Source: an uncultured virus (IMG/VR IMGVR_UViG_3300038825_001787) (lineage: Duplodnaviria > Heunggongvirae > Uroviricota > Caudoviricetes). From it: DNA of 64,000 bases. The stretch lies in IMG/VR virus record IMGVR_UViG_3300038825_001787; one strand, 5' to 3'. Positions 31,897 to 64,000 of this stretch are shown piece after piece. The notes beneath the pieces were generated by a model. That model saw only the letters and a list, made by a program, of their open reading frames with translations, made no database searches and was not told the origin of the DNA. The position numbers and the translations under genes were made by a program. Every line of letters begins with the position of its first letter. Within the stretch, counting starts at the first letter, position 1.

Positions 31897-31916
31897 GGAA
31901 AGCACCCTCTTTAACA

Positions 31917-32339
31917 GATAAAAGGCATTTTTTAGATGCCGCAGCCTTCACAGGCTGCAACTCACGTTCGCTGCTTCGGCGGCATTTACTTCGGGCTTCG
32001 GCCTGGTTCGTGAGATTCCGTAGTGGGTGTCAAAACCCACTACAAAAACTCTATCATCCCGTATGATTCGAGTTAAAATAAGGCCAAGAGCAGCAAAAGC
32101 CCGTAAGGGGGGATGGACGGTGCAGAAATGTACAGTTGAACTGCGATTAGCAATTTAAGTTTAAAAACAGAACTTCGAGTACCTTCCTTTTGGAAGTGAA
32201 CTTATACGCATTGTCATTAACGACCTGACCGCTTCAAGGCGAAGGACGGACTTTGTGAGGAACCTCGAGGAGTGTCTTATTTTAGCATTTGAGATGAATA
32301 CATTTGTAGGCTGACGCACCTAACCCAAACGCGTTAATA
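31917..32339 (+). ncRNA. structured RNA containing a circularly permuted RNase P-like catalytic domain (32074-32284)
   Basis: CR-V-like ACAGAA-CTTCGAGT precedes CR-I-like GAGGAACCTCGAGG, and the two pair as a P4-like helix; P1-, P2-, P5/7- and P15-like helices; upstream UUCG hairpins. Confidence 0.6.
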
Positions 32340-32347
32340 GAGATACT

Positions 32348-32638
32348 ATGAGTAATTTAAAATTAATTCGTAAAGTAAAAACAAGAGAAGAACTGATGAA
32401 CGCATTAGTGACAGGAGACAAAGTAATTATTGTTCCGAACTACCCTAACCAACAGATGACTGGAACTATCCAGTCAGTAGAAAGGGAAGACGGATCAGGC
32501 TACAGTTTCAATGTCGTAATATATGTAAGGAACAGGCAATTGGAAAAAACAGAATGGCAAGGAGTAACATATACTCCTAGCCATATATTAAAAACTGTTT
32601 ACATCAGATTCCCAAGTCGAACAAGACTTGGTGCATAA
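32348..32638 (+). CDS. hypothetical protein
   Basis: ORF following an AATAG junction. Confidence 0.6.
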   Translation: MSNLKLIRKVKTREELMNALVTGDKVIIVPNYPNQQMTGTIQSVEREDGSGYSFNVVIYVRNRQLEKTEWQGVTYTPSHILKTVYIRFPSRTRLGA

Positions 32639-32956
32639 ACTCCGGGTGAGACCGATAAAAACTCGATAGGGCCGTTACTAAGAAACAACGGATATTTCAA
32701 CACAAGCACACGCGCCGTCTCGATGAATTCGGTAGTTGTTAAGAGCGGTGTTGATAATAGATTAGGAAGGACTGAATTACCTAAGTGCGCAATAGGTATC
32801 GATCCTTCCGTTTGCGAAGTCGTAATAGACGAGGAGCAGATGAAACTGGATGCATATTATAACATCATAACCGATGAAATAAGCATTAGTACACCAACAT
32901 TCAGATAAGCGTGTATTAACGGTAACGGCGGGTAAAACCGTTCGTAATAGATTACC

Positions 32957-33235
32957 ATGTTTGATATTAACACTATTACATATGAAGACTACACGAGATT
33001 GCACGCTCGGTCAGATTTGACCGTGGACCAGGAGCGCCTTTTAGTTAAGGCATCACTCCTGCACGGAAAGAGATGGGCCGACGAAGAGGCTACCGAAACG
33101 TGGCTGAAGGCACACCCAAAATTGGGATTATCGTTGGATGAGAAGAAGACTCTAAACTTGACAAGAAAGTACGCTTCCGAGCAGAAATCTTGGAAAAGAT
33201 ATAGAGAAGACTTCGATGACGATTATCTCCTTTGA
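32957..33235 (+). CDS. hypothetical protein
   Basis: ORF following hairpin+AATAG. Confidence 0.6.
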   Translation: MFDINTITYEDYTRLHARSDLTVDQERLLVKASLLHGKRWADEEATETWLKAHPKLGLSLDEKKTLNLTRKYASEQKSWKRYREDFDDDYLL

Positions 33236-33301
33236 GGGTCTCCGCTTGGGCGCGATAAAAACCCAATAGGCTTTACACACCTAAACCATAAATGTGTTAA
33301 C

Positions 33302-33433
33302 AGATAGATTATCTTTCCTTTATTGGGAAGACGATTTATCCGGATATCTTTCCGGATAAACGCTTTGAGTCTCGAACTGGATTTATTCAGCGAAGGATTC
33401 ATTGAGATGGGACTACCAATCCTATCAGATAGA
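33302..33433 (+). ncRNA. duplicated structured non-coding element, copy 1
   Basis: ~132-nt near-identical copy at 36664-36795 with pairing-preserving changes. Confidence 0.6.
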
Positions 33434-33785
33434 TATTAGATGCTATTGTTATAGTATCATTTTGAGAGAGGAAAAACAAAAAACCGCTTTGGAGGTGCAA
33501 AACACCTACCCCGGCGGTTTCTCTATGACCGAATAGGACTTACAGATTTTGTCTCTGTAAGACTGACGATACCATAACATGACAGATGTTGGGACCAGCC
33601 GCATAAGATCGGCCCCCTGTTCCGGATAGGAATTACACATCTACATCTTAGGCGAGTGGGAAATTCAGCAATGCAAGTTGAATCTACTGCTCATGGAAGG
33701 GCTTGATTAATTTCAAGTTGGGAAGAAACAAAGAGAAAGGCGTCACGGTGTAACAACTGTGGCGTCTTTTTTTTAATAGATTCAC

Positions 33786-34001
33786 ATGACAGAAGAAATG
33801 ATGACACAAACAGATGAACAAGCAAGAGACACTCGTTGGCGTAAAGCAGTAGAAGATTTACTGGACGACGACGATGTTATTGTTAGTAATCCAACACCAC
33901 TGAACGAGGGCAAGATGTTCGCAAACCCTAACCTCGGCAGAATGAAAACGACTTGGAGACAAGTTAAAGCATTCGCAGAGCAGTGGAGTGAAGAAGAATA
34001 A
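33786..34001 (+). CDS. hypothetical protein
   Basis: ORF following hairpin, T-tract and AATAG. Confidence 0.55.
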   Translation: MTEEMMTQTDEQARDTRWRKAVEDLLDDDDVIVSNPTPLNEGKMFANPNLGRMKTTWRQVKAFAEQWSEEE

Positions 34002-34049
34002 ACCATAAGTCGTCCTACGGGGCGCATAATAGATAGGTAGTTTACAGAT

Positions 34050-34358
34050 ATGTCTGAAAAAAAACTAAACTATAAAATTGAATTTATCTGCTACGGGCCG
34101 GACTCTTATTTCTGCCCTGAGAAGGTGGCTGCCGCTGGTGGCCTCTTCTTTGAAGAAAGCGATGCAGTCGTTACCTTCTGTTCCGTTATTTACGGGACGA
34201 AGGAAGATGCTGAGAACGAAGCAGATGAGTTAGCATGGAAAGCCGACGCCTGGTGCGGGGGTCGTGGTGCGTTGCACTACGATCTCTATATCACGGTTAC
34301 TAAGGACTCTCCTGCAGAATGTTCGGTAACCAAAGGCCCCTTCTGGGGCGGTGACTGA
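34050..34358 (+). CDS. hypothetical protein flanked by 35-bp direct repeats
   Basis: Repeats at 34000-34034 and 34366-34400. Confidence 0.6.
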   Translation: MSEKKLNYKIEFICYGPDSYFCPEKVAAAGGLFFEESDAVVTFCSVIYGTKEDAENEADELAWKADAWCGGRGALHYDLYITVTKDSPAECSVTKGPFWGGD

Positions 34359-34405
34359 ATAGGAAAAACCAAAAGTCGTCCTACGGGGCGCATACTAGAT
34401 GGAAC

Positions 34406-34482
34406 GGGCCTATGGCTTAGTCAGGTAGAGCGTCCGGCTCTTAACCGGAATGTCGCAGGTTCGAACCCTGCTAGGCCCGCCA
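34406..34482 (+). tRNA. tRNA-Lys (CTT) with encoded CCA
   Basis: Acceptor GGGCCTA/TAGGCCC, anticodon arm TCCGG-CTCTTAA-CCGGA, T loop TTCGAAC. Confidence 0.95.
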
Positions 34483-34638
34483 CCATTAATAGATGAAAGT
34501 AGTTGACACTTGCGACCTATGTTCCCGAAGAGGAATTATATGGTCTAACAAAGATAACACACGCATTTGTAAGAAATGCAATAACAGAATAGAATTAGAT
34601 CTATTACTGGATCCTCCGGAAACGAAGGATGATACTAG

Positions 34639-35052
34639 ATGGACACATCAAACGAAAATAAATACTATATAAACGGAAAAGAAACTGGAGGTTATTTAGA
34701 AATAAATCATGAACTTTGTGAACAAGACAAAGTCTACGAAAATTACGAAATTACTTCAATAAGAAAAAATGGACTCGAACCCCGTTGTATTGGAGGAACT
34801 ATAACGACACAGTTGTATAAACTGATTATAGAAAAAGATGGAATAGAAAGTGAATTAGAATTAGGGTCGAGAGACTCTGAAAAACTTGCTTACTATACCA
34901 ATATGTACTATCATAATACACCCGATGACATTGACTTGCCAAAAGTGGTGTCTTTCACTTGGATAAGAATGAAGACCAAACGTGGAAACACCTACTTGGA
35001 CCTTAATATCCTGTGGAACTTAGTACCTGTAAAAAAGATTACAGAGTCTTGA
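34639..35052 (+). CDS. hypothetical protein
   Basis: Starts at TACTAG-ATG. Confidence 0.65.
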   Translation: MDTSNENKYYINGKETGGYLEINHELCEQDKVYENYEITSIRKNGLEPRCIGGTITTQLYKLIIEKDGIESELELGSRDSEKLAYYTNMYYHNTPDDIDLPKVVSFTWIRMKTKRGNTYLDLNILWNLVPVKKITES

Positions 35053-35084
35053 AACCGCTACAAGCGGATACTAGGAGAGATAAA

Positions 35085-35645
35085 ATGAATAATGTGAAAA
35101 TTATTGCCAATGGATTCGTCCTACGCCAAACCAAAGAAAGCCCGTTCAGTTACTATGCTGGACAACTTCCGGAGGTGGTGCGTTTGGTTGAAACCCATTG
35201 GGAAGAACAAACCCCAGGATATCGTGACGGCGTAATAACCGTCCGTGTTCCAAGTGAGGGATTTTACTCCGGCGTCGCCCAACTGAAAGAAGATGATGAA
35301 CTCTCGGGTTCATTTAAATCACGAAGGAAAGGCGAATTGCCAAGAAAGCAAATTGGTGCAAAAGGAGCCCAGAAAGTTCCTGCACAACAAACAGACATTG
35401 TACTATACCGAAAGGATGTACTAGCAGAGTCTAATGACAACACCCCTGATGTTCACGCTGATTGGGAAATTATTAGTATTAATGCTAGTCCAGTGGTAGG
35501 CGAGATGCCTATACATCCTGAGACATTATGTGCCAATTATTTTGGCGATGATGGAGGCACAGACACTAATATGTCGCCTGAAGAGTTTACAACGGCTCTT
35601 CGCACTTCGCGAGAATGGTGGAGTGACAAGGCTATGTGTGCATAA
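35085..35645 (+). CDS. DUF3228-like protein
   Basis: PGYRDGV, RR.GELP, DIVLY, WEIISI, P..P.T...N...GG; family recalled from memory. Confidence 0.5.
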   Translation: MNNVKIIANGFVLRQTKESPFSYYAGQLPEVVRLVETHWEEQTPGYRDGVITVRVPSEGFYSGVAQLKEDDELSGSFKSRRKGELPRKQIGAKGAQKVPAQQTDIVLYRKDVLAESNDNTPDVHADWEIISINASPVVGEMPIHPETLCANYFGDDGGTDTNMSPEEFTTALRTSREWWSDKAMCA

Positions 35646-35696
35646 CACCAAAAAGTTATGATGCGGCTTAGGGTATACTCTAAGTACGCTCATTAG

Positions 35697-36053
35697 ATGG
35701 ATCAAGAAATTGAAGAATCAATTAAGAAAGAATGCAATGATATAGTGTATTGGACTGACAAAGAAACGCAAGCAAAAAAGGCTTTAGACGAAGCCGAAGA
35801 CCGCTTGTTGGACTTTATCGAAGCGCACTACAAAGACAAACTTCCTACTGACGAGAAGTTTGCCGATATTAGAATCGGCAAGTACCGAATATGCGTTGCT
35901 AACCACCGCAACAAATACAATACTATACTATACGTTGAGGAAGAACTCAAGCCACCGACACCGGTGACTTTGGAAAGTGCAACCGCAGAAGATGCCCCAC
36001 ACTGGGCATTGTCTGCATTAGGTTCACTATTTCCAAGTAAGGAAGAAGAGTAA
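35697..36053 (+). CDS. hypothetical protein
   Basis: Starts at hairpin+ATTAG-ATG. Confidence 0.65.
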   Translation: MDQEIEESIKKECNDIVYWTDKETQAKKALDEAEDRLLDFIEAHYKDKLPTDEKFADIRIGKYRICVANHRNKYNTILYVEEELKPPTPVTLESATAEDAPHWALSALGSLFPSKEEE

Positions 36054-36070
36054 AATCTTTCCTTTACTAG

Positions 36071-36289
36071 ATGCCCCGAGATATTGAAGAATACCGAAAG
36101 GAAGTAGACGCACGAACTGAACAACCTGAGAGACCAGTATGTCTCCAGAATAATTCATGGTGGGATGTTAAAATGTCCCGCTATGAAGACATGAGTCGTC
36201 TACAAGAACACCGCAAGAACATTGCTAGAAATAACAGTACTTCCAGTAGACACGGAAGGAAACATGCTAGCAACGGAAGGATGCGCTGA
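36071..36289 (+). CDS. hypothetical protein
   Basis: Starts at TACTAG-ATG. Confidence 0.55.
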   Translation: MPRDIEEYRKEVDARTEQPERPVCLQNNSWWDVKMSRYEDMSRLQEHRKNIARNNSTSSRHGRKHASNGRMR

Positions 36290-36607
36290 AACCATAACGC
36301 TGCTTAGGGACATCTCTAAGTGAGCCGTTATTAGAATGTATATAGGAAATGAAAAAACATTAAGGGATATAAGAACGACTGATGGAACGACTGATATTGT
36401 ACTATCAGCAGTCACCGCATGGCAGATGATACCATATAACATCAATCCGAAGATTAAAAATTTACAAATCTTCCTGCAAGGTGATACCATATTTACAGTG
36501 GACGCAAGCCAATCATTGGCTGTACTTAATCATCTACGCACCCACATAGGATAAGCGATATCCCGCTACTAGACAGAGTTATACCGGTATTGAAGGCATA
36601 CTGCCAT

Positions 36608-37986: not shown

Positions 37987-38165
37987 TATCACAGATACCG
38001 TAAAGAAGCGGGCGGAATATAATATTCTGCCCGCAACTGACGGTTACTAGACACAATTTAAAAGAAGGCTCTCAGCGTTTGCGATTAACCCCGTAAATGC
38101 TGAGGGCAATTTTTTTTTGTCCCGTGTTAATAGTCCCTCATAAGAGGGAGGAGAATGAAAAAAAT

Positions 38166-38830: not shown

Positions 38831-39073
38831 AACGCACATCCAATTGGGGATACTAACCGTATCGCCATTACTAGCAAGAGTATAACACAAACTTTTACAT
38901 CATGTAAAAGTAACTTGATCAGTTGCCCGAAGGATAAATTTGTCGGGAATTTGGAGCAGAATAAGCAGGGCCTCACATCCCTACTTTGGCTGGCTATCCT
39001 CGACTTGATGTAAAGGCATACACTTGCGCCAACGGTGCGGCATAAGCAATTGCAAAACTTATGTCGCCCAACA

Positions 39074-39510: not shown

Positions 39511-41039
39511 TGAATGGAAAATAGTTTATGTAAAAAGAAAACCACTAAACCACGCAGTCACTGTGTGGAATTCCCGGGTGACCCGGTCGTTACAGTGGAC
39601 CGCTCGTGTACTACTATAGTAGACAAGCAAGTACAGAAAGTAGTTTAAAGAATGCATATGTGGAAATTTGCTAAAATTTCCCACATTATGTGGAAGACAA
39701 TCACCAAACGATGACTCTGGGACCTCGCTCCTGGAGGAGCCCGCATGCATGCAATGCTACGGGACCAGTCACCTGCACTATCATCCGGATACAAATGTTG
39801 TAATCGGAAAAGAAGCAGGAGATGCAACAAATTCTGGATACTATAACATAGTAATCGGAGATTTTGTATGGGTGGAAAAAGGCGTATGAGACGTGGTATT
39901 GTATACCGCGGACGAGGTAATAACCTCATCAGGACTTCTCAAGACGACCTAAAATTGTTTTCAGTAAGAATACGCAATGCTACTTCTACAGGAAGAGCGC
40001 CGCCCGAATGGCCCCAAGGACATGCTTAGCGCACGCCTGCCAGGGAAATTCTACAACTTACAATCTAGAAAATACTTTATGACAAATGTAATACAAATAA
40101 CCAAGCCGAAGACATCGACTGTAGTCGACCTTAGGTGGTATACCCGTGGAACAATTTACGGGTCGTTACAACAAAAAAATACATGAAAAATTTACTCGCT
40201 AGCGATAGCGAATACAAACATAAAAAGTGGCTATAAACCTTTTTAGGAAGGATTATGGACAACTTACACACGCGTACGTACATGATGCGCATTGGACAGT
40301 TAACTGAACAAACAACCCAGAGTACCTTTGGGTTAAACGAACGTTCAGGGTCCATCGCAAAAGAAAGAAGAAAGGTTATCAAACAACGAGAAATCCTCAT
40401 GGATGCCTTGTTGGGCTACACCATGAATTCATACAGTAATACAGTAACACTCAACTTTAAGACACGTGAAGAATTGTTTTGACTAATTATGGGACTGCAG
40501 TTTGCAAAACCCAAGTGCTCCATCGCTCACCTGAGTGATGGAAAATAGTTTAAAATCAAAGAAATTGTAAAAGATTTACATTGCCAGACAAAACTCCTCC
40601 CCCTACCGGGGTTAGGACACCAAAAGGTGTTTGGCCAAAAGGGAGAATACGGCGAGGGCACATTCCGTGCCGACCAATTCATCATCTTAGGAACCTAAGG
40701 TGTGTGGCGAGACCAAGATATCTAGAACCAAAGAAAATTCTTCTCAGGTTCTACGACTAGTGGCTCCTCATACCAAACAAAGTACTCTGCGGAGACGCAG
40801 GAACTAGGAACTAATTTGTAGACAAACTCTAAGAAAATTAGGTCACCTATTTACTGATGTAGATATGGTGGTCCTATTTAGAAACCCTAAGTTGTAAACA
40901 AAACAGAACTACCTAAATGTAATCACTGTTTAACAATATCACTGGCGATTGGTAATATGCAACCCGACTATATGTGGGGAAGAATGCTACCAAAATTCCC
41001 GCTTCCCATAAACCTATCACCAGAAGGAGTATTAATAAT

Positions 41040-42776: not shown

Positions 42777-42818
42777 AAACAAACAAGCCTTTAACTGACC
42801 ACTTAGTGGTCATACTAG

Positions 42819-53134: not shown

Positions 53135-53146
53135 TCCGTTTACTAG

Positions 53147-53967: not shown

Positions 53968-53982
53968 ATCTTCCATTACTAG

Positions 53983-54264: not shown

Positions 54265-54317
54265 TTGAGCATAACATAGTAAGATTAATTACTAACTATG
54301 TTTCCTCAATTTACTAG

Positions 54318-54518
54318 ATGACACTGATGCCAAAGCAAAGTGAGAACCTGGGACTAGAAATCTCAGAGCCTATATACAGGCTGGCAACAAGCATATACGA
54401 AAAGCACAATTCCAAGGTCTTAGCAGGCAGTGGAAAATGGATGCCCACAAACGTAGCGGTTGACTTGGCAAAAAAAATGCTAAGTGAAACGAATGCTAGT
54501 CGGTCTAATACTAGATGA
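54318..54518 (+). CDS. hypothetical protein
   Basis: Hairpin+TACTAG-ATG. Confidence 0.5.
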   Translation: MTLMPKQSENLGLEISEPIYRLATSIYEKHNSKVLAGSGKWMPTNVAVDLAKKMLSETNASRSNTR

Positions 54519-55747
54519 GTAATATAAACGAAAATCAAGGATACGCAGTTGAAGGAAGATTGAAAGAAACAGCCAAAGGGTATTTAGCCCTCTGGTCAAT
54601 TAATGCAGGTAGGATGAGATATTCCGACCTTGTTACTGTTGCTAAGCGCAATGGTTTAACACAGGGTCAGATACCGAAACTACGAACCGCAAAGAATGCT
54701 TTTGCAGTTGCAAAGGATACTATACTTAACTCCGCATTACCAACACTCTTAGAATTAGATGGTTGGGATGGAGCGGTCAAACAAAGTTTAGATGTTAAAC
54801 ATCTAAAAAGAGGAAATGAATACCAAGTCTCGGTTAGACGAGAAGGTAGAATGCATGGGAAGTTGCACAAGGAAAGTTCTCCAGTCTTTAGACTGGAATT
54901 CTCTCCTCCAGATGCCTTTGACCATGTTGCATGGGTACAAAACTACATGCGCTCTTTTTGGGATGCTGAATACATCAAAGAAATTGAAGCAGGTACTAAA
55001 CAAAGACCTGTACCTAGTCAAACTAGGGTTTGTATACGTATAGAAGGCTATTGGGATGACAGCGATATTGACGTCGAGTTGATGTTGAGAGTCAGAGACC
55101 GAATAAGCCAAGCATTTGAAGATACTATTGTTAGTATTGACGAAACGCTTTTGCGACAACACATTAAAGAGACATTGAAATCTTTAAACGGTATTAGTTT
55201 CCTTGCAGGCAAGGGGGCTACATATATTCCCATTACAGACGAGGACAGAGATTCAAAATCTGCGTCTTTGGAGTCTATGGCTAATATTATCACCTCTTTT
55301 TCTAGAGGATACCAAACAACCGCAAACGATGAAAACTACTATGACGAGAATGGCAAACCCATCAATCGTTATGGAACATCAAGTAATTTTAGATATCTAG
55401 GATACCTAGATAGCGAAAGAGAGATGCAGTACATAAGAGAAGATTTGGGTTCCAGTATTTCGAGAGAAATAGCGGAGTTCCAAGCAGAAGTCGTTAAGAC
55501 TGCTGCCTCTTTTGATACAACTAAAGTCGAACTTTTCGAGAAGCAACTTACCAAATTGCAGAGAAAGAAAACTAATATTACTAAAAGAATCGGCAATATG
55601 CGCACAACATTGGGCGGAGAGATTCCTATTCGTAGGAGACTCCATTCTGATGTTCAGCAAAGATTTGGTAGCCGAATCTCAAACATAACTCAGACCCACA
55701 ATGCAGTTAGTACTACATTGATGAAGTTAACTGAGTTTGACAATTGA
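54515..55747 (+). CDS. hypothetical protein
   Basis: 410 aa, TACTAG-ATG. Confidence 0.75.
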   Translation: MSNINENQGYAVEGRLKETAKGYLALWSINAGRMRYSDLVTVAKRNGLTQGQIPKLRTAKNAFAVAKDTILNSALPTLLELDGWDGAVKQSLDVKHLKRGNEYQVSVRREGRMHGKLHKESSPVFRLEFSPPDAFDHVAWVQNYMRSFWDAEYIKEIEAGTKQRPVPSQTRVCIRIEGYWDDSDIDVELMLRVRDRISQAFEDTIVSIDETLLRQHIKETLKSLNGISFLAGKGATYIPITDEDRDSKSASLESMANIITSFSRGYQTTANDENYYDENGKPINRYGTSSNFRYLGYLDSEREMQYIREDLGSSISREIAEFQAEVVKTAASFDTTKVELFEKQLTKLQRKKTNITKRIGNMRTTLGGEIPIRRRLHSDVQQRFGSRISNITQTHNAVSTTLMKLTEFDN

Positions 55748-55765
55748 GGCTAATGCCTCTTACTA

Positions 55766-56481
55766 GAAAGTAAATACAACTGATGCCCTTCGGGGCAAAT
55801 GACGTATCGCCGAAAATTCCGGTAGAGCACGCTCTACAGGAACGGCTCATCCTCCGGAACTGCTTCAGGCTGCTGCGCAGACTACTGCGTATCTGAAGCC
55901 TTTACCCTAACATCCCTATCACCTTGCGGCTCCGCTGCGGTGAAACGGAATGTAAACGGGCACGCCTAAACTACAGTTTCCTCGAGCGAGTAAACTGGTT
56001 TAACGGCTAATCCTACGGAATAACAATCAGGATTTAGTCCTGATAGTATGAGCCTATTTACCGCCTCTACCCTCATTGGGGTAACCCAATTAACCTTCTA
56101 AAGAAGGGAGGGCGAGAGGCTTCGGCTCCTCGGAACTACTACGGCACGAACCAAGATTGAGTTAATCAGTCAAGAGAAATATAAGTACCCGCGTACTGAC
56201 ATTTCACATGACTTACTCAATTTTCATGACTTACCCTATGTAGAAACATAGATTTGAACAACTTGAGGCGGCTCTGCGCTGCCCTAAAGGGACATCAAAT
56301 CTCTGCGTCTACCCCTAGTAAGTCACGAAAGTTCATACCTTGAGCCACGGTGGAATCCAGAAACAAGTCTTCTGGATTCTGCCCTGCAACTGTATGCTCT
56401 GCGGAACCCCGCATACAACGTTGCGGCTTGGCTCAACCGGTTCATCGCCAAGTTCCTCGGAAAATAGTTTTACTTTCACTA
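55766..56481 (+). ncRNA. large K-turn-headed RNA with terminal stem
   Basis: CTGA-TGCCC-TTCG-GGGCA-AAT-GACG at 55780-55804; GAAAGTAAA/TTTACTTTC-ACTA; many internal hairpins. Confidence 0.65.
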
Positions 56482-56510
56482 GAGCCTCGAAAGAGGAAGA
56501 GTTGATTGAC

Positions 56511-56903: not shown

Positions 56904-56921
56904 AACACTTGTGTTCTACTA

Positions 56922-57476
56922 GAGAGAACTAAAACACCGATGCCGAACAAGCATGTGACGTAAATTAGTAAATTAGAGATTACACATAGCAAGGAAGTCA
57001 AACTGATTTTCTGCTAAATCTAAATCTGCATGGTGATCCAAGCAAGTAATCACGAATGGAATAAATCCACTCGCTGATTTGTATAGGGCAGTTGCCCTAC
57101 TCAAATCTTACCTGCCCAGGGTCACCAGCACAATTAGAATAAAGAATTCACATTCGTGAATTAAACTACCACCACATTAGAACGGTAGTCTGCCTTAGAA
57201 TTAATTTTTTAACATCCGCAACTGGAAACGTTCCGCGTGTCTTCACATTCACCTTTACAAAGTAAAGGCCGCACAATACTGTGCCACCAACAGTGAGGTA
57301 AAATCCTCACAACATTGGTTGAATGTTCCAAACACAGCGTCCGAGTTCCAATGCGGAACACCAAAAATCAATAAAAGTTAAACACTAAAACTAGGCAGCA
57401 TTAAACTGCCAAAGTAAAGCGGCTTATATAAGCCCAATAGTAAAACTTGAAACACTAAAAACTAGAACTCTCACTA
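56922..57476 (+). ncRNA. K-turn-variant-headed RNA with terminal stem
   Basis: CCGA-TGC/GCA-TGT-GACG at 56937-56960; GAGAG/CTCTC-ACTA. Confidence 0.5.
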
Positions 57477-57808
57477 GATAGACCACCATATTTTATATTC
57501 ATCACCATGAAAAAATAATGGTTTATATGACAATCGGGAAAGACCGGTACCAGATGAACAAAACTAAACCACTACAACAACTCAATGCTGATTTCCTAAA
57601 AAAAGATTGGACGTATGAAAAATGACGCTTTTAATTTATGGACGCATGGATTAAAAATGAAAGTATACTTGTTGGAAAAGGCGACAGGGGTAAAACCCGG
57701 CTCTGTGGTCACAAGTTTTGCGTCGGACACCATGAAAGAATGGAACACTATGCTGTGGGCCCGAGCGGTGACAGTCATATTGTTAAAAGGGGTGAGATTC
57801 CCCACTAG

Positions 57809-59041
57809 ATGAATATCAAATGGAAGACAGAAGAGACGCGTTGTATCCATAAAGACCCACGGGACTTTAGCAGATGCAAAATTAAAGACGTTAAACCTGG
57901 AGAATACTTATGTGAACACCATAAGTACGATCTCGCATCATTTGTAAATGACCCAACAGCCTGTATTGATATTATGGCTGAAAGGTTTCCAAAAAGACAT
58001 CATCCTGCCTGTGACCGCAAAGGAGAAAATGACTGCGAATGTCATGACTACTCTAGAGGCGCAAGTATGATGATTACCATGAAGGCTGCTTTCAAAGAAA
58101 GCAAACTTCAGAGTAAACTATACCAAAAACACTTGAAAGTAACGATGGCTGATAAAGTCCGTCGAATCAAGAACTATTATAGGAATATAACAGAGGATGA
58201 TATATATCTACCTCCCTATAGTAATTTTAGACAGTATAGATTTTTCACATGGGAACCAAAGAGTCAGAGAATCGTTGTCAAAGTATTGAAAGATAATGTA
58301 AGGACAAAGAAAATTCTGCTCAGTCATCTACGAAGACTGGCACCTATACACGTGTATTACACAACAGGTCAATGGCTAAATCCGCAAGGAATTGGTCCTG
58401 ACCCTGAATCACGTAAAGGTTTAGCCAAGATGCGAAAGAAAGGTTGGTGCGCTAAAAAAAGTAAGAAAGTTACTTTGAAGCGATACCATAACACCATGTT
58501 GAAACGAGATTTATATTTCGATATAGATTACGACAACAAAGACTATCATCAAGGAATAAGGATGGCCGACGAACTAATACATGCAATAAATAAACACATT
58601 CATTGTTATCAGTTCAACGGCGTAAAACAACAAATCGTATTTAGTGGAGGCAAAGGCTTCCACTTGATAATAAACGGATACTATGACGAAGCGTTTACTA
58701 GACCTAGTAAGCGTAAATTGTACGACCTATTGAGAAGAGAGGCTATAAAAAAAGGCGAAGATAAAAACGCCGCTTTCTTACGCTACTCTGTCAACCACGA
58801 AAACAAAAATGCAGCGATTGAAAACCACTACAAAGACATAGTGGATATTCTGCAATACGAAACAGACCTTTTGTTAGATTGGATGGTTACATATGATAAC
58901 CGTAGAATAATACGATTGCCTGGAAGCGTGCATGGAAAGTCCATGCGTGTTTGTAAGGAAATTAATTTTAGTGACGATAATGTTATTAAAAACCGTGCTG
59001 GAAAACCCGTTGGGTATGTTCCAGCAGACCCCATTCCTTGA
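57809..59041 (+). CDS. archaeo-eukaryotic primase catalytic subunit (PriS-like) with N-terminal Cys/His extension
   Basis: HVYYT, DLYFDID, FSGGKGFH, D..VT.D..RIIRLPGSVHGK. Confidence 0.9.
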   Translation: MNIKWKTEETRCIHKDPRDFSRCKIKDVKPGEYLCEHHKYDLASFVNDPTACIDIMAERFPKRHHPACDRKGENDCECHDYSRGASMMITMKAAFKESKLQSKLYQKHLKVTMADKVRRIKNYYRNITEDDIYLPPYSNFRQYRFFTWEPKSQRIVVKVLKDNVRTKKILLSHLRRLAPIHVYYTTGQWLNPQGIGPDPESRKGLAKMRKKGWCAKKSKKVTLKRYHNTMLKRDLYFDIDYDNKDYHQGIRMADELIHAINKHIHCYQFNGVKQQIVFSGGKGFHLIINGYYDEAFTRPSKRKLYDLLRREAIKKGEDKNAAFLRYSVNHENKNAAIENHYKDIVDILQYETDLLLDWMVTYDNRRIIRLPGSVHGKSMRVCKEINFSDDNVIKNRAGKPVGYVPADPIP

Positions 59042-59050
59042 GGTTACTAG

Positions 59051-59587
59051 ATGACAAATGAAATTGAATTTTATGTTGATGGCTCTGCCATCAATAATGA
59101 GAATCCAAATGTACGAACTCTTGGAGGTATAGGTGTTTACAGACGCACTAACTCAGAGAACGGTATTAATATTTTAACTGCCCGACCAGATCAAGAATGG
59201 GCAATAAATGTTGATGACGGTGGCGTAGCGTTGAGGCGTGAAATCCCATTAGATTTGGGAAAAGTAACAAACAATACTACCGAACTGGCTGCAATATACT
59301 ATGTTCTTCTGATAATAAAACTGAACCATAAATATGACAATTGCATAATATACGGAGACTCGCAATACGCGGGTAACTTAGTATTTGGAAACTGGAAAGC
59401 AAAACAAAACAAGGAACTAGTTGCTAAGGTTAAAGCCCTGGCAAAAACAGTTCCTAATGTCACATGGGAATATGTGAAAGCACACGATGGCAATGTCTAC
59501 AATGAATATGCAGACTACCTTGCCAAATCTGGTGCATACAACAGAACCCCACTACCATTCGATGAATGGAAAGAAACGGAATTTTAA
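59051..59587 (+). CDS. ribonuclease HI (second copy)
   Basis: YVDGS, TNNTTELAAI, DSQY, VKAH, NEYADYLA. Confidence 0.92.
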   Translation: MTNEIEFYVDGSAINNENPNVRTLGGIGVYRRTNSENGINILTARPDQEWAINVDDGGVALRREIPLDLGKVTNNTTELAAIYYVLLIIKLNHKYDNCIIYGDSQYAGNLVFGNWKAKQNKELVAKVKALAKTVPNVTWEYVKAHDGNVYNEYADYLAKSGAYNRTPLPFDEWKETEF

Positions 59588-59597
59588 TTCCTACTAG

Positions 59598-60389
59598 ATG
59601 AGTACTAAAAGAGAAAATCAAAAAATACCCACACGAGAAATCAATGGTGTCGACATACCATTAACAAAGATGGTCGACGCACAAAAGATGCTGACATCTC
59701 AAAGAGATGCTGTTTCTAAACTATTAGCCACCATAAAAGGTGCTTGTGAAGAATACTCAGGTTGGACAAGAGAATTTAGCGATAGTGATTTAACCCCACT
59801 TCGCACGACGAACTTTGTCAAACTAGTAAAGCAATCTGAAACAGACTTGAATGTACTTCAAGTATGGGATGGACAAAAGTGGATAAATGTACAACTTACT
59901 AAAATTGTACTGGAACCGAAGGTAGACAAAGATGTCAAACCTTCATCGAAACAAATAAGCAAGAAATCGCCAATAGAGGTTCACAGGACCCAGATGGCTA
60001 AGAAAAAATACAAAGACCTCGGAGACGGACTAGACTTCAAAACAAAGTACGGTGTCGAGATAATGTTACTTGCAATTAATTGCTTCAAAGAGGCATACCA
60101 AATGGAACGACAAAAAGGAGGAGACTTAGGGTCTTTGACTTTGTTCTGGGAAGACTGCACCAAATATGTTAGAAACCATCAGAGCGTTAGTTCCGTCCTT
60201 ACACCTGGATGGAAAAATGCTTTGCTAAAGTCGTTAATTGACGACGGATGGATTCTTGGCAGAAAAGACAAGGCTTTGACCGTAAAACCTTTTTCAAAAG
60301 GTATCGAAGGTTGGCCTAGTGGTGGAAAGTTACATCCTACTGTACTTGGAGAAGCACCAATTCGTATTACAAAATATATGAAAAAATGA
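59598..60389 (+). CDS. hypothetical protein
   Basis: Hairpin+TACTAG-ATG. Confidence 0.7.
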   Translation: MSTKRENQKIPTREINGVDIPLTKMVDAQKMLTSQRDAVSKLLATIKGACEEYSGWTREFSDSDLTPLRTTNFVKLVKQSETDLNVLQVWDGQKWINVQLTKIVLEPKVDKDVKPSSKQISKKSPIEVHRTQMAKKKYKDLGDGLDFKTKYGVEIMLLAINCFKEAYQMERQKGGDLGSLTLFWEDCTKYVRNHQSVSSVLTPGWKNALLKSLIDDGWILGRKDKALTVKPFSKGIEGWPSGGKLHPTVLGEAPIRITKYMKK

Positions 60390-60407
60390 AACATTTGTTT
60401 CTACTAG

Positions 60408-60575: not shown

Positions 60576-60632
60576 AGACAACAACTATAAACCCCCAATT
60601 TAGGGTTCATATTGTTACTAGGAGAACTTAAA

Positions 60633-61067
60633 ATGACAAAGCAAACCAAATTAAGCGACTTCCTCAAGGGAGTTGCAGAAGAAGACGAAAAGCACCGCAC
60701 ACCGAATGCCGAAATTGAAGATAGGGAAGACTTTAAGGCTGAATTTGACACAGTATATGAGAACTATATTGTGGAAAGTTACACCTCAGATATCCCTAGC
60801 AATTTCGATGATAAAACAAACACAGTTGTGAAATTGACAAGCCCCGCTGGAGACAAACTCCAAATGTGGGTTGGAAGTTACGAACAAGACCACTTTCACC
60901 AGAAAGTTGCTGCTTGGGAAAAACAAGGTCATGAACTACCAGTGAAAATATCATTTGCACGAATCAAGGTGCCGTCAAAGAAAGACCCAAGTAGGTCATA
61001 CAACAGACTGAAGATTCAGACTGTTGCTCTTGGCCCAGATGTGGCTCAAGAATTACTTACACTTTGA
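60633..61067 (+). CDS. hypothetical protein (possible OB-fold)
   Basis: GGAGA RBS after the junction. Confidence 0.6.
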   Translation: MTKQTKLSDFLKGVAEEDEKHRTPNAEIEDREDFKAEFDTVYENYIVESYTSDIPSNFDDKTNTVVKLTSPAGDKLQMWVGSYEQDHFHQKVAAWEKQGHELPVKISFARIKVPSKKDPSRSYNRLKIQTVALGPDVAQELLTL

Positions 61068-61087
61068 GGTTAACGACCTCTTACTAG

Positions 61088-61336
61088 ATGGATAAGAAAA
61101 ACCAAAAGCAATGTTGCTATGAATGCAACAAAGAACTAACCGAAGCAGAATCATACCGAGTCCCTACCGACTCAGGAAGTGTGAGAGGGCGACAGGTTAA
61201 ACCAAGAGGAAGAGATCGATTTGAAATCATAGCAGATTACCATGTTTGGAACAATCTATGCTATGGTTGCTTTATCGCTTATTCCGGCTTCGACAATGAA
61301 GGTAGACCAGCAGTGGTCCAACTTTCAGAAGCGTGA
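61088..61336 (+). CDS. small Zn-finger protein
   Basis: CxxC...CxxC; TACTAG-ATG. Confidence 0.6.
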   Translation: MDKKNQKQCCYECNKELTEAESYRVPTDSGSVRGRQVKPRGRDRFEIIADYHVWNNLCYGCFIAYSGFDNEGRPAVVQLSEA

Positions 61337-61356
61337 GGCTTTGAGCCTCTTACTAG

Positions 61357-62226
61357 ATGAGTAACTTTGAAAGTGAAAATGAAATGGAGGAAAGAATGAC
61401 AAGAAGATCCTGCTCGGATTGCGGATGCAAAATGAGTAGGGTACCTAAGAAAGGAAGGCCAAACAGAATCGGTTTGAGAACAAATGGTGTAAATATGCAC
61501 TATATGTTAAAAACTGCTTTGTGGTTTGAAATAAACCAAGCATACCGAGGATTGTTGTGCCTAACATGTGCACAAATAAGACTTGGTAGAAAGTTTGTTC
61601 CAACCGATTTTAAGCCCGTACCAATTAATTTTGCGAAGGGTGGAGCATTGGCTACACTGTTCCCAGGTGAATTTACAGCCCACATGGTTGCATTCGTTGG
61701 GGAAGAAACCGTAGAAGAGCAAGATGAAGCGAGAAGGCTTGTAGATGCTCACTATAAATCACTTGAATCAAAAAACACGACCCCTTCGAAAGAGGAAGTT
61801 GCTGTTGATTTAACTCCAGAAGAAAATAATTCTGAAACTGAAACTGAAACTAAACCTAAAAGTAAAGGTAAGTCCAAGAAAAAAACTACGACATCGAAGA
61901 AAACCAAGAAAGCAATGGATGACCTCAAGAAAAATAAGAGAGTCTTTACTAATGCCATCTATGGTTGGGATGTCAAAGACAGAAAGTTGTACCCAAACTG
62001 GGATGAACAAAACAATATTGATTGGATGAAAAAACAATTAGGCTTTGGAATACCTGCTGCAGAAATAGCAAAGACACTGAATATAAACGACTGTCGCGGA
62101 AAGCGTGGCGGTAAGTGGAATAGTTCTGGTGTATTGCGTACAGTCAAATACGACATCCATGCAGATAGGGATGAGTCTGAAGCACCAAGGTGGTTCAGAA
62201 AGCGTTCCGGTAACAGAATAAGATAG
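61357..62226 (+). CDS. Zn-finger protein with recombinase-type DNA-binding C-terminus
   Basis: CxxC..CxxC; YGW...IA..LN.....KRGGKW....V. Confidence 0.6.
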   Translation: MSNFESENEMEERMTRRSCSDCGCKMSRVPKKGRPNRIGLRTNGVNMHYMLKTALWFEINQAYRGLLCLTCAQIRLGRKFVPTDFKPVPINFAKGGALATLFPGEFTAHMVAFVGEETVEEQDEARRLVDAHYKSLESKNTTPSKEEVAVDLTPEENNSETETETKPKSKGKSKKKTTTSKKTKKAMDDLKKNKRVFTNAIYGWDVKDRKLYPNWDEQNNIDWMKKQLGFGIPAAEIAKTLNINDCRGKRGGKWNSSGVLRTVKYDIHADRDESEAPRWFRKRSGNRIR

Positions 62227-62244
62227 GCAATACTGCCTTACTAG

Positions 62245-63318
62245 ATGACAAAAAAAACAGACAAGAGGCGCAAGAGATTCAAATCTAGTGCGTCTAAAAA
62301 GAAAACATCAACAAAAACAACAACAAAAAAACCAAAGTCAGATCCGATATGGGATCGACTATGGACTCGAGAGGCAATTTTGGCCCATGCGTGGGTTGTC
62401 GCTGATCATATATTTGACAGCGATGACGCACAATTGATTGATATCGGTATAACTTCTAGTTATACAGAATCAAATGACAACAGAAAGGTCTATCGATTAA
62501 AGAACAAGGAAAAGAAAAATCTATCTTTGGAAAAACATATTACAGTTCCAGCAGGTGGTATATCGCTCGAAAGTGCATTATATACCGGACACTGGAAGGA
62601 CTTTGTGAATATTGTTGTTAAGATGATTACTGGCTATTCCCCCATCACTGATGAGTGGGATAGTAGGTATGATTCTAAGGCACCGGACTTAAGAAGTGTT
62701 GCAACTAAGCGATATTTTAGAGTCAAACGACTTTTGGAAGAATCCATAGAATCAATAATTTACTTGAGATACTATGACGCAAAGAAGGAATTCTCTGCAA
62801 AATTTCCAGAGTTTAAAACCAGATACTTAGATAAAATAAGTTTTGGTGACAAGGTGATAGATAAAACTACACTACCTTACAAAACACTACACAGATGCAG
62901 GAAAAAACAATGCCATGGATTGTGTTTTAAATCGACCCTAAAGAAATTAAAGAACAGGGATGAAGACGGTAGTACCGGAGCACAAGCATACCTCATTGCA
63001 AGGGCACATGAACTTGCCCTGCACAGTAGAATGACAAAAGACATATACAATTATGCACTATACGGCGACAGAACTATATTCCGTAACGAGGATTCTAGAT
63101 TCTGGGATCTTTTTGACAAAGATCATCTTATAGATGCCTCATTTAGTGAAAGCGTAATTGCCACATATGTAATTATTTTTCTAACCAATGACAAAGGTAC
63201 TGTACCACCTGGATATCCAGTTGGTAAGGAAGCAGACCGTATCCGTAAAATGTTTAATAAAATTTTATCGGACGCAAAAGACTCCTACCCTAAATTAAAG
63301 GGTAAGGTGCGTAGGTAA
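62245..63318 (+). CDS. hypothetical protein
   Basis: 357 aa, hairpin+TACTAG-ATG. Confidence 0.7.
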   Translation: MTKKTDKRRKRFKSSASKKKTSTKTTTKKPKSDPIWDRLWTREAILAHAWVVADHIFDSDDAQLIDIGITSSYTESNDNRKVYRLKNKEKKNLSLEKHITVPAGGISLESALYTGHWKDFVNIVVKMITGYSPITDEWDSRYDSKAPDLRSVATKRYFRVKRLLEESIESIIYLRYYDAKKEFSAKFPEFKTRYLDKISFGDKVIDKTTLPYKTLHRCRKKQCHGLCFKSTLKKLKNRDEDGSTGAQAYLIARAHELALHSRMTKDIYNYALYGDRTIFRNEDSRFWDLFDKDHLIDASFSESVIATYVIIFLTNDKGTVPPGYPVGKEADRIRKMFNKILSDAKDSYPKLKGKVRR

Positions 63319-63333
63319 TCTTGATGCTTAACT

Positions 63334-63364
63334 CACCAACCTAGAAATAGGTTGGTGTTTTTTT
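63334..63364 (+). terminator. hairpin followed by T-tract
   Basis: CACCAACCTA-GAAA-TAGGTTGGTG-TTTTTTT. Confidence 0.5.
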
Positions 63365-63374
63365 ATCTTACTAG

Positions 63375-63593
63375 ATGAGAGGAATAAAGACCCGAACCAG
63401 AGCACTTGATGCCTGCGCGAACATACTAAAGCAAACTGCTAGACCTATGTCTTCGTCAGAACTGATTGGTGCTATGATAAGTAAAAACCCTAGAAGTACA
63501 AGATGGGCGCCACAGGCGCAAGCATTGAGTAATTGGCTAAGGGGAGATCAAAGGTTTCAATCCTTTGGTAGAAAGCAGTGGAAACTAAAATAA
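63375..63593 (+). CDS. winged-helix-like small protein
   Basis: IL....RPMSSSEL......L...L..D.RF...G...W.L. Confidence 0.55.
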   Translation: MRGIKTRTRALDACANILKQTARPMSSSELIGAMISKNPRSTRWAPQAQALSNWLRGDQRFQSFGRKQWKLK

Positions 63594-63604
63594 CCACTTA
63601 CTAG

Positions 63605-63736
63605 ATGAAGAAAATATACGGAGACACTTACCTTAGTGTTGAAGAAGAATTCGCCGCTATAAACAAATTAGCAGAAATAAATGCTAAAGAGTTTTTAGTT
63701 GAAATAATACACTTATTTCCAAACAGTGGAAACTAA
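63605..63736 (+). CDS. small ORF between 34-bp direct repeats
   Basis: TACTAG-ATG, 43 aa. Confidence 0.45.
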   Translation: MKKIYGDTYLSVEEEFAAINKLAEINAKEFLVEIIHLFPNSGN

Positions 63737-63752
63737 AATAACCACTTACTAG

Positions 63753-64000
63753 ATGAAAAGGAGATACAGTCCTAACAGGAACAGAAGAAAAGGTACAACA
63801 CTAAAGAAGAGCCGAGAATGGCTCAAGAAAAAAGTGCATTGTAATTATTGTGGTGACGAGATAGAAACACTCGTTGATAAAAAGGCCAAAGGGCCATTTT
63901 ACCATAATGACTTATGTGAGCAGGCTTGGGAATCAGAGCAATCTGGTGGACCCGTGCTTGCTTCTTCTAAAAACTATCACGACATAGAAGATGATACTTT
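63753..64000 (+). CDS. Cys-containing protein, 3'-partial
   Basis: TACTAG-ATG; CNYC; open to the window end. Confidence 0.5.
   Translation, partial: MKRRYSPNRNRRKGTTLKKSREWLKKKVHCNYCGDEIETLVDKKAKGPFYHNDLCEQAWESEQSGGPVLASSKNYHDIEDDT

Follow-up and report, generated by a model that had tools for sequence, protein, structure and literature searches.

How a long run of co-oriented genes is divided into expressed units is the question raised by the right-hand half of a 64,000-nucleotide (nt) stretch of DNA (the window) from an uncultured virus of the Caudoviricetes, IMG/VR record IMGVR_UViG_3300038825_001787, where gene boundaries carry a small hairpin followed by the pentamer ACTAG, often directly against the next ATG. 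We take the source to be a large marine virus, still uncultured, that infects a prokaryote. The array of single-unit modules (positions 31811 to 64000, plus strand) runs off the window end and contains 45 junction ACTAGs, together with the variants AATAG, ATTAG, ATCAG and ACCAG. The signal is real, strong and family-wide. We give an even chance to the reading, drawn from sequence comparison, that each unit joins a 3′-end hairpin to an initiator for the viral polymerase (T-AYYAG, then a purine at +1), which would yield RNAs that are leaderless or carry a short leader.

ACTAG sites were sorted by their position relative to open reading frames (ORFs) into 45 junction-type and 16 intragenic sites. 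The longer string ACTAGATG occurs 21 times on the plus strand of 31081-64000 and not at all on the plus strand elsewhere in the window; on the minus strand, three copies lie in 1-31 kb and none in the array. TACTAGR was found 34 times in the array, compared to a mean of 7.0 (standard deviation, 2.9; maximum, 16) in 200 order-2 Markov simulations, and plain ACTAG showed a mild excess over the whole window (163 versus 130 ± 12). These counts establish the enrichment at gene starts that the original prediction had proposed. All 21 ATGs that it listed as directly following ACTAG were confirmed by position, and its eight spaced starts (35085, 43533, 44751, 47365, 48956, 49585, 51283 and 60633) all lie 5 to 12 nt after the motif. 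As gene starts, 19 of the 21 hold up; the ATG at 34399 is followed by a tRNA-Lys at 34406, and the one at 53675 opens a 98-nt unit without an ORF. The variant class (AATAG, ATTAG and others) was statistically inseparable from background within the window, and a permissive count of variant motifs near starts gave similar rates in control blocks.

The information in the logo of the 45 junction sites is limited to yT-ACTAG-R. T stands at position −1 in 34 sites, and the motif is followed by A at 36 sites, by G at 8 and by C at 1, hence by a purine in 44/45; the preference persists where no ATG follows (23 of 24 sites). An archaeal or eukaryotic TATA box or B recognition element (BRE) at about −26 was absent from this logo, in which positions −20 to −40 reach at most 0.26 bit (an A at −28), T is not enriched, and the A enrichment at −28/−27 is weak. 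Sigma-70-like sites (−35/−10 hexamers at a spacing of 16 to 18 nt) numbered 53 versus 50.6 ± 7.4 in shuffles and were not positioned at junctions.

Hairpins were assessed by folding the 32 nt upstream of ACTAG, with a minimum free energy of −3 kcal/mol or lower as the cutoff. The mean at junctions was −5.08 kcal/mol, compared to −3.66 at random positions (P = 0.0017), −2.17 in shuffles and −3.43 upstream of intragenic ACTAGs, and 34/45 junction sites passed the cutoff. The last paired base lies 0 to 3 nt before the motif at 30/45 junctions versus 763/3000 (25.4%) random positions (binomial P = 7e-9), and at only 2/16 intragenic ACTAGs and 9/26 plus-strand gene starts in 1-24 kb. The claim that most motifs stand immediately after a hairpin thus holds for these 30 sites and fails for the 11/45 motifs without a hairpin by the fold test. 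No hairpin is seen at sites before which no gene ends, or at which the preceding unit is a noncoding RNA (ncRNA) or overlaps the next gene. Where present, the hairpins span 12 to 28 nt, with stems of 4 to 10 bp and loops of 3 to 12 nt; the stop codon of the upstream gene often falls within the 5′ arm or the loop, and the sequence is different at nearly every junction. That structure is conserved rather than sequence, as had been proposed, is borne out by this diversity and by the unrelated hairpins found at orthologous junctions of a close relative. A CRISPR repeat with a Cas6 site was considered and rejected, as the hairpin sequences differ at nearly every junction and no Cas6 Pfam match was found among the window ORFs scanned.

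The same geometry was found in a family set of 143 nonredundant sites from the window and 81 related loci, each with ACTAG, ATTAG or ACCAG directly before the ATG of an open frame of 40 codons or more. In this set, 127/143 sites fold at −3 kcal/mol or lower, and 88 of these 127 end 0 to 3 nt before the motif. The sense strand folds more stably than the antisense strand (means of −7.54 and −6.29 kcal/mol over the 143 sites; Wilcoxon P = 5e-6), and 82/741 stem pairs are G·U. This RNA-type asymmetry and the G·U pairs argue that selection acts on the hairpin as sense RNA rather than as a cruciform in the DNA.

What follows the motif differs from junction to junction. An ORF of at least 40 codons begins 0 to 12 nt downstream of 27/45 sites, abutting the motif in 19 cases and spaced from it in 8. 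A Shine-Dalgarno (SD)-like 4-mer precedes 2/19 of the abutting starts, and the leaders of spaced starts open with GGAGAG, AGGAAT or similar, in agreement with the earlier observation that abutting genes have no free ribosome-binding site and spaced ones carry GGAG or GAGG. In 1-31 kb, where genes are grouped in operon-like blocks and stops overlap starts, SD-like 4-mers occur at 25/49 starts versus 9.5% of control positions; these sites and the overlapping stop and start codons indicate that translation is of the prokaryotic kind. The motif also heads the tRNA-Lys mentioned above, and five ACTAG sites head ORF-less units with a kink-turn (K-turn)-like module 12 to 18 nt after the motif. Because it precedes mRNAs, a tRNA and ORF-less structured RNAs alike, the motif is not translational and belongs to RNA units generally, independently of coding.

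Conservation was examined most closely against L003, a contig with a primase 89% identical to that of the window and with 25 copies of ACTAGATG in 18 kb. ACTAG is shared at 21/21 orthologous junctions. Five of these have unrelated sequence in the 30 nt before the motif, yet in most of them a hairpin still stands next to it: at junction 53142, the hairpin AAACGGAT...ATCCGTTT is replaced by TGGC-GAAA-GCCA in L003. The L003 hairpin at junction 61352 shows a compensatory G-C to A-U change. Within blocks of nucleotide homology, 18/18 junction motifs align to ACTAG (one of them, at 57461, only via a gap, where L003 reads ACATAG), compared to 1/4 intragenic ACTAGs kept. The L003 comparison indicates that the motif is under purifying selection. 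The motif is often where homology blocks stop. At junction 59593, L003 carries 162 nt inserted between two ACTAGs, after junction 53670 it has a different gene, and conserved cassettes stand beside unrelated neighbours in the two genomes. Contigs of related strains skip 48951-49594 and 53672-53771 and end in or beside ACTAG, a weak indication from alignment at 90% likeness. Related sequence was present in 24 sequencing runs, 16 of them recorded as RNA and some of these oligo-dT libraries. Four runs (X1, X2, X3 and X5) were examined on 44001-64000 as assembled Logan contigs, some of which cross several junctions; such contigs cannot show RNA ends or strand, and DNA may be present in the libraries.

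A survey of 80 metagenome loci with polymerases 41 to 98% identical extended the comparison to the family. As the original prediction had anticipated, the same punctuation recurs in related genomes, with ACTAG, ATTAG or ACCAG abutting the ATG. The letters on the array strand are typical of clades (ATTAG in L016, L021 and L035; ACCAG in L064 and L075; ACTAG in L040 and L069), and the three variants share a core, AYYAG. ACTAG was the commonest 5-mer before 12,577 open-frame ATGs from the related loci and the window. In relatives, a long hairpin is followed by T7 to T10 at a minority of the junctions. In the most distant clade (33 to 37% polymerase identity; L001, L002 and L084), no motif was found near the polymerase, and G001, the record of L002 (33% identity), holds two forward and three reverse copies of ACTAGATG in 105 kb. 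Given this low count and the lack of the motif near the L001 and L002 polymerases, the punctuation is not shown for the distant clade. A homologue of TFIIB/TFB that has two cyclin repeats (E = 1e-22) is encoded in that clade, some 3 kb away from the polymerase (G001 57005-57559; L001 18093-19028, minus strand; L084 18082-19014). Rpb2 domain 6 was not found in G001, a 76%-complete record.

The candidate reader of the signal is a polymerase encoded in the window itself. The gene at 24122..28804 (minus strand) specifies a 1560-amino-acid (aa) fused A′/A″-type (Rpb1-like) RNA polymerase largest subunit with Rpb1 domains 1 to 5. Among solved structures, it is closest to archaeal Rpo1N/A′ (E = 2.6e-104) and Pol III RPC1, over an E range of 1e-104 to 1e-103; the match to bacterial beta′ is weaker (E = 1e-39). 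Two genes upstream of it, a 79-aa Rpb5/RpoH-like subunit (Rpb5_C) is encoded at 29997..30236 (minus strand), and an Rpb5_C gene adjoins the polymerase in 67 related loci. An Rpb5 homologue in a virus whose translation signals are of the prokaryotic type is not described in any report that we found. The whole operon (24122-31061, minus strand) comprises the A′/A″ subunit, a 244-aa protein, an RNase H, the Rpb5/RpoH-like subunit, and 190-aa and 83-aa proteins of unknown family. The conserved 244-aa neighbour has a beta-rich predicted structure (predicted local distance difference test score, 66), and no match to it was found in the PDB at an E value of 0.001 or below. Full-length relatives of the polymerase form about 39 clusters (31 to 100% identity) in marine metagenomes; one is binned as "Euryarchaeota archaeon," and a relative of 37% identity sits in a metagenome-assembled genome labelled Flavobacteriales. 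The host is probably an archaeon, as hinted by the type of polymerase and by the K-turn RNAs. No description of the virus family or of the motif was found in the literature searched, whose coverage did not extend to subscription journals.

Taken as a transcription signal, the junctions would work as follows. Almost every array gene, one tRNA and several structured ncRNAs would be separate transcription units. The hairpin would act in RNA, forming or stabilizing the 3′ end of the upstream transcript with the U-tract dispensable, and T-AYYAG (ACTAG in this clade) would be the core promoter or initiator for the viral polymerase, with transcription starting at the purine that follows the motif or inside the final bases of the motif. 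An abutting ATG would then give a leaderless mRNA, and a spaced start would give a leader of 5 to 12 nt opening with SD-like GAG or GGAG. Of an initiator-type viral promoter, the short motif at a fixed place, the purine at +1 and the viral polymerase genes are seen; the start site and the enzyme that would use it are putative. The proposal that RNA 5′ ends arise at the motif and that the hairpin closes the preceding RNA fits the tRNA and ncRNA heads, the purine at 44/45 sites and the sense-RNA hairpins; it leaves both cutting and initiation in play. We lean to initiation because ACTAG heads operons without a hairpin and because no other conserved promoter-like element is present. Such operon-style units also make the motif (the start of a unit) separable from the hairpin (the end of the previous one). 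The signal had been described as unseen at gene starts in 1-31 kb, which is correct apart from a few unit heads at which ACTAG stands in sense orientation and without a hairpin (1484, 13670, 19478 and 20613 on the plus strand and 10121 and 13192 on the minus strand). An initiator promoter is thus the most economical reading in view of the purine after the motif, the lack of another promoter signal, the motif at operon heads and the virus-encoded polymerase, and the T7 to T10 hairpins of some relatives are what would be expected of a terminator followed by a start. From these features we infer a start site rather than a cut site, the enzyme that reads it, and termination by the hairpin as opposed to mere protection of an end.

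Several observations weigh against such an initiator preceded by a terminator. A stable RNA hairpin is present, but the U-tract of an intrinsic terminator (at least five T in eight directly after the stem) is mostly lacking: the T-run before the motif is 0 to 3 in 136/143 family sites, and in a scan of 44-64 kb for intrinsic terminators only one junction hairpin passed, that at 63334 with T7. To our knowledge, known multisubunit polymerases terminate with U-tracts or factors. The hairpin keeps to the motif and not to the upstream stop, despite spare room at 42814, 34394 and 57804. Neither the second-largest polymerase subunit nor TFB/TBP was found within the window, and by tblastn TFB is confined to the distant clade (G001, L001 and L084) and was not detected in L003-L083 either. 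A promoter of five to seven conserved bases would be very small. TACTAGR is present as well within the polymerase gene (three sense-strand copies) and on the minus strand of the array (four), with no obvious avoidance, and from its presence within genes and on the other strand it follows that the motif alone is probably not sufficient.

The main alternative, which we regard as possible but doubtful, is that a viral or host endoribonuclease recognizes the hairpin plus (U)AYYAG in a long polycistronic RNA and cuts it at the motif or just past it; a protective 3′ hairpin would remain on the upstream RNA, and the downstream RNA would begin at the AUG or with a short SD leader. The tight coupling of hairpin and motif (0 to 3 nt in 30/45 window sites and 88/127 folded family sites) speaks for cutting, as do the G·U-containing sense-RNA hairpins, the missing U-tracts that termination normally needs, and the tolerance without conservation of bare intragenic ACTAGs. 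A hairpin that stays near the motif and not near the stop codon where room exists also looks like part of a single composite processing signal. However, none of the 99 window ORFs scanned has a Pfam match of the RNase III, Cas6, MazF/PemK or RegB type, 11/45 junction motifs have no hairpin, and at operon heads ACTAG has nothing upstream of it to be cut off. If ACTAG were not a promoter, no other conserved promoter motif would be visible in the array, and the hairpin plus T7 to T10 terminators of some relatives would break a polycistronic precursor. Tentatively, the junction might also be conceived more broadly as a single composite RNA signal, serving either endonuclease punctuation or a polymerase stop-restart. 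In the former case, an endonuclease would release from long transcripts the leaderless mRNAs, the precursor of the tRNA and the ncRNAs that bear K-turns; the tRNA punctuation of mitochondria would then have a counterpart based on a protein and a hairpin. In the latter, the archaeal-type viral polymerase would stop at the hairpin and restart at the motif while staying on the DNA, much as RNA-virus polymerases stop and restart at gene-end and gene-start signals. A viral precedent for cutting is described in the accessible part of a report on Mimiviridae, in which a viral enzyme cuts transcript-ending hairpins (PMC4402537). Either form of composite signal, if true, would add a new mode of genome expression to those of DNA viruses.

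The other explanations that we weighed are less probable. An extruded inverted repeat that forms, with ACTAG, a structure-specific DNA promoter would recall the N4 virion polymerase, a single-subunit enzyme that uses hairpin promoters with a 5- to 7-bp stem and a 3-nt loop. Structure kept without sequence and a fixed distance from stem base to motif are consistent with it; we consider it unlikely, given that stems (4 to 10 bp) and loops (3 to 12 nt) are variable, that G·U pairs and sense-over-antisense stability indicate RNA, that ACTAG heads units without a hairpin, and that the polymerase is multisubunit and not T7-like. Very unlikely is an attC-like recombination site at cassette boundaries with expression as a secondary role. 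The genome differences that break at the motif (the L003 insert at 59593, the exchanged gene after 53670, the flanked cassettes and, weakly, the segments skipped by related-strain contigs) point in that direction, and the window encodes a serine recombinase (16025-16771). Integron attC sites, however, are imperfect palindromes of 57 to 141 bp with R″/L″-L′/R′ cores, served by a tyrosine integrase with attI nearby; the hairpins here, at 12 to 28 nt, are far below that size, the scan of 99 ORFs turned up no tyrosine integrase, and recombination has no need of a motif tied to the start codon to the nucleotide or of a purine at +1. Homologous exchange at shared regulatory junctions gives the same pattern, as in the T4-type cassettes treated in the available portion of PMC4122927. 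A translational signal, either TAG-ATG stop-restart coupling or an unusual ribosome-binding element, is suggested by the TAG directly before ATG in 21 cases and by abutting genes without SD sites. We give it hardly any weight: the TAG does not consistently fall in the frame of the upstream ORF, which has its own, earlier stop (for the same reason, TAG was rejected as the true end of the upstream gene), a tRNA and ncRNAs follow the motif, and the motif of ACCAG clades contains no stop codon. These three facts largely refute the idea. Scarcely credible, finally, is a splice acceptor for trans-splicing of a common leader. The invariant part of the motif is indeed a YAG preceded by pyrimidines, and related sequence occurs in oligo-dT RNA libraries; against this stand the SD sites and overlapping stop and start codons elsewhere in the window, which are signs of prokaryotic translation, the tRNA that follows a motif, and the absence of a shared loose-end leader at junctions in the assembled contigs examined. 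We thus agree with the original prediction in disfavouring splicing and recombination as the primary function, with the addition that cassette gains and losses do break at the motif.

Considered as a 3′-end hairpin joined to an initiator, the design is known in kind; the motif, its placement against the ATG, the polymerase and the virus family are new. In poxvirus late promoters, a TAAATG initiator overlaps the start codon and late mRNAs gain poly(A) heads by slippage; the fusion of a short initiator to ATG and the virus-encoded multisubunit polymerase are shared, whereas the motif, the eukaryotic host, the poly(A) heads and the lack of an adjacent hairpin differ. Non-virion RNA polymerases of jumbo phages (phiKZ, with TATG, and AR9) use short initiator-type promoters. 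There too, a phage-encoded multisubunit polymerase recognizes a few bases at the start site, but it is a split bacterial-type beta/beta′ enzyme, and motif, geometry and hairpin association are different. Promoters of Mimiviridae are of the AAAATTGA type and lie well upstream. Under the hairpin rule of Mimiviridae, as far as the accessible part of PMC4402537 describes it, transcripts end at palindromes of variable sequence, which are cleaved by a viral enzyme and polyadenylated; variable transcript-end hairpins in a virus with its own polymerase are thus common to both systems. The 99 window ORFs scanned yielded no such cleaving enzyme, and the assembled contigs examined showed no poly(A) loose ends. 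T4-type phages carry composite terminator/promoter cassettes, termed PeSLs (promoter-early stem-loops), and the available portion of PMC4122927 likewise describes, between small co-oriented genes of poor conservation, a stem-loop joined to the promoter of the next gene, with indels and gene swaps of close relatives that break at the cassette. PeSLs, however, carry a host sigma-70 early promoter and conserved sequence, whereas the virus studied here has no sigma-70 signal, only 5 to 7 conserved bases, unrelated hairpins and a motif that abuts the ATG. The yeast virus-like elements pGKL1/2 have a 6-nt upstream conserved sequence (UCS; ATNTGA) plus an initiator and sequence-independent stem-loop 3′ ends with a median of −7.5 kcal/mol, in the extract available of PMC6211774. 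They share with the array a nonhost multisubunit-type polymerase of their own, a very short promoter motif for each gene, and 3′ ends set by stem-loop structure and not by sequence, with that median standing next to a mean of −7.5 here. According to the same extract, their UCS lies 20 to 40 nt before the start codon and their leaders are nontemplated poly(A); in the virus, the motif touches the ATG, host translation signals are prokaryotic, and the polymerase is a full Rpb1/A′-type enzyme with Rpb5.

If the initiator reading is true, five letters and any small hairpin would define a gene unit for an archaeal/eukaryotic-type viral polymerase in a host with prokaryotic translation, and the pair would constitute a minimal promoter and 3′ end for an unusual enzyme (fused A′/A″ plus Rpb5). 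The consensus could then be used to annotate gene starts, small genes and ncRNAs in a widespread, undescribed marine virus family, and the array would be a natural case of systematic leaderless expression. Cassettes swapped between relatives at the same junctions link regulation to genome plasticity. The family may be the first of archaeal type with its own multisubunit polymerase.

The individual junctions, all on the plus strand, are as follows. The array opens with an ACTAG at 31811..31815, whose nearest hairpin (31783-31800) is 10 nt away and which is followed by an ORF-poor structured stretch (31816-32340). Variant motifs lie within 32336..36334, with AATAG at 32336, 32946, 33775 (after a G·U-containing hairpin and T8) and 34028 and ATTAG at 33435, 35692 and 36330. 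A hairpin (34375-34391) and ACTAG (34394-34398) stand 7 nt ahead of the tRNA-Lys (CTT anticodon; 34406..34482; Rfam tRNA, 70.8 bits), a motif-headed noncoding unit. The hairpin AAGTCGTCC-UACG-GGGCGC is reused at 34008-34027 and 34373-34392 and at four L040 junctions, unlike the otherwise unique hairpins. The following hairpin-ACTAG pairs abut ATG 34639 (34611..34638; ORF 34639-35052) and ATG 36071 (36039..36070), and the pair between them (35055..35074) is separated by a 10-nt GGAGAG leader from ATG 35085. After the pair at 36554..36572, no ORF starts in the next 16 nt, and after the pair at 38031..38050 the ORF start is 46 nt on, at 38097. Further pairs head an ORF-poor stretch at 38875-39976 (38845..38874) and stand upstream of an AAA ATPase gene at 40974-42776 (40786..40807). 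The hairpin TGACCAC-TTA-GTGGTCA and its ACTAG (42796..42818) abut ATG 42819 about 20 nt past the upstream stop. They are followed by a pair with a 9-nt AGGAAT leader before ATG 43533 (43505..43523), a pair at the head of the ORF-poor stretch 44283-44733 (44263..44282), an ACTAG without a hairpin and with a 12-nt GGAGAG leader before ATG 44751 (44734..44738), and a pair with no 40-codon ORF starting in the next 16 nt (45595..45617). Beyond the structured RNA units described below, a hairpin-less ACTAG (47354..47358) has a 6-nt leader before ATG 47365. Leaders of 5, 10 and 6 nt separate the pairs at 48919..48950 (hairpin, −12.0 kcal/mol), 49551..49574 and 51244..51276 (−12.5 kcal/mol) from ATGs 48956, 49585 and 51283, and the pair at 50369..50386 abuts ATG 50387.

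A weak A/T hairpin and ACTAG (51485..51520) abut ATG 51521, and the hairpin AAACGGAT...ATCCGTTT with its ACTAG (53115..53146) abuts ATG 53147. At 53650..53772, a hairpin and ACTAG (53670) are followed by a 98-nt ORF-less mini-unit and then by a hairpin and ATCAG (53768-53772) that abut the true start, ATG 53773. This mini-unit (53675-53772) is bounded by ACTAG|ATGAG and ATCAG|ATGAG, an 8-nt repeat, and is absent from related-strain contigs; it resembles a duplicated junction or the insertion of a tiny cassette. The pair abutting ATG 53983 (53958..53982) has the upstream stop codon in its loop. ATGs 54318 and 54515 directly follow hairpin-less ACTAGs (54313..54317 and 54510..54514), the second of which lies in the 3′ end of the upstream ORF. 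An ACTAG at 56478..56482 has a 28-nt leader before ATG 56511 (ORF to 56903), and three hairpin-less ACTAGs (57390, 57461 and 57473) lie in an ORF-poor stretch (57390..57477). Hairpin-ACTAG pairs then abut ATGs 57809 (57789..57808; archaeo-eukaryotic primase-like gene), 59051 (59027..59050; RNase H), 59598 (59578..59597), 60408 (60388..60407), 61088 (61066..61087), 61357 (61335..61356; GAGGCT-TTG-AGCCTC), 62245 (62225..62244) and 63605 (63577..63604). The pair at 60586..60621 has its hairpin 5 nt away and an 11-nt GGAGAA leader before ATG 60633. ATG 63375 is abutted by an ACTAG after a 10-bp hairpin (63334-63357) and T7 (63334..63374), and ATG 63753 by an ACTAG (63748..63752) that follows the same GTGG...CCAC arms as at 63600. 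The sole intragenic TACTAGR of the array (58672-58701) lies in the primase gene after AAACG...CGTTT arms, and L003 reads GCTAG there.

The ORF-less units headed by a K-turn-like module form an RNA family of 283 to 711 nt, found in the window at 45765-46900, 55762-56477 and 56918-57389 and in L003 at 4837-5502 and 5942-6414. In the window, an ACTAG heads each of the units 45765..46054 (module at 45782), 46055..46342 (module at 46075; fold z, −14.5), 46343..46900 (46366; −11.8) and 56918..57389 (56937; −6.8), and a hairpin with ACTAG at 55762 heads 55746..56477 (55780; −8.5). The module reads CUGA, a capped stem of 3 to 5 bp, three bases (NNU) and then GACGUA. The stem covaries, with 93% of cells paired and 4/5 pairs changing on both sides, in an alignment of only seven sequences. 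Fold z scores of the four largest units were −7 to −14.5 versus −3 to −4.4 for coding controls, with 12 mononucleotide shuffles each. These RNAs had no Rfam match; over the window, Rfam returned only the tRNA at an E value of 1 or below and, on three subregions at 10 or below, only subthreshold noise. A pattern scan of viral contigs for ACTAG plus the module gave 119 stretches, all attributable to chance except L194, which is the same sequence as L003. If real, at least five paralogous K-turn RNAs in one virus would be unusual and would hint at a host L7Ae-type binding protein. Two other ORF-poor stretches (31816-32340 and 33440-33775) are rich in UUCG- and GNRA-capped stems, with fold z scores of −2.8 and −3.1 that are no better than those of coding controls. 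The second opens with ATTAG-ATGCTATTG, a start kept in L016 and L035, and closes with the G·U-containing hairpin and T8. A recoded genetic code was rejected as an explanation for the ORF-poor stretches, which stay closed under reassignment of TAG, TGA or TAA.

Among the unit heads in 1-31 kb, TACTAG-GTTACA-ATG stands at the head of a leftward operon (13188..13192, minus strand) and TACTAG lies 64 nt before the first gene (ATG 13739) of a rightward operon (13670..13674, plus strand), both without a hairpin, as is the ACTAG at the unit head at 1484 (plus strand). TACTAGATG lies in a 238-nt gap upstream of leftward genes (10117..10121, minus strand). A near-identical 29-nt repeat, AACTCAA-ACTAG-GTTATCATTATAAACCG, occurs about 40 nt before genes 19523 (19470..19500, plus strand) and 20656 (20605-20635) and is kept in L007 and L009-L012. 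ACTAGGTTA has six exact copies, all in 8-23 kb, three of which are intergenic and sense-oriented; it is also found at the head of the leftward operon at 13192 (minus strand). Two copies in the DNA polymerase gene are conserved across clades, which probably reflects coding constraint. ACTAGGTTA and the 29-nt repeat may be a second flavour of promoter; we do not claim a second promoter class.

Other genes of the window include a family B DNA polymerase, whose nearest relatives (23% identity) are enzymes of haloarchaeal tailed viruses, the archaeo-eukaryotic primase-like gene, two RNase H genes, an HNH endonuclease and the AAA ATPase at 40974-42776; the ATPase, used as a query, retrieved no related locus among viral contigs. 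The SWIB/MDM2 domain is mostly eukaryotic, and a 98-aa protein encoded at 5950-6246 (plus strand) carries one (E = 3.6e-7).

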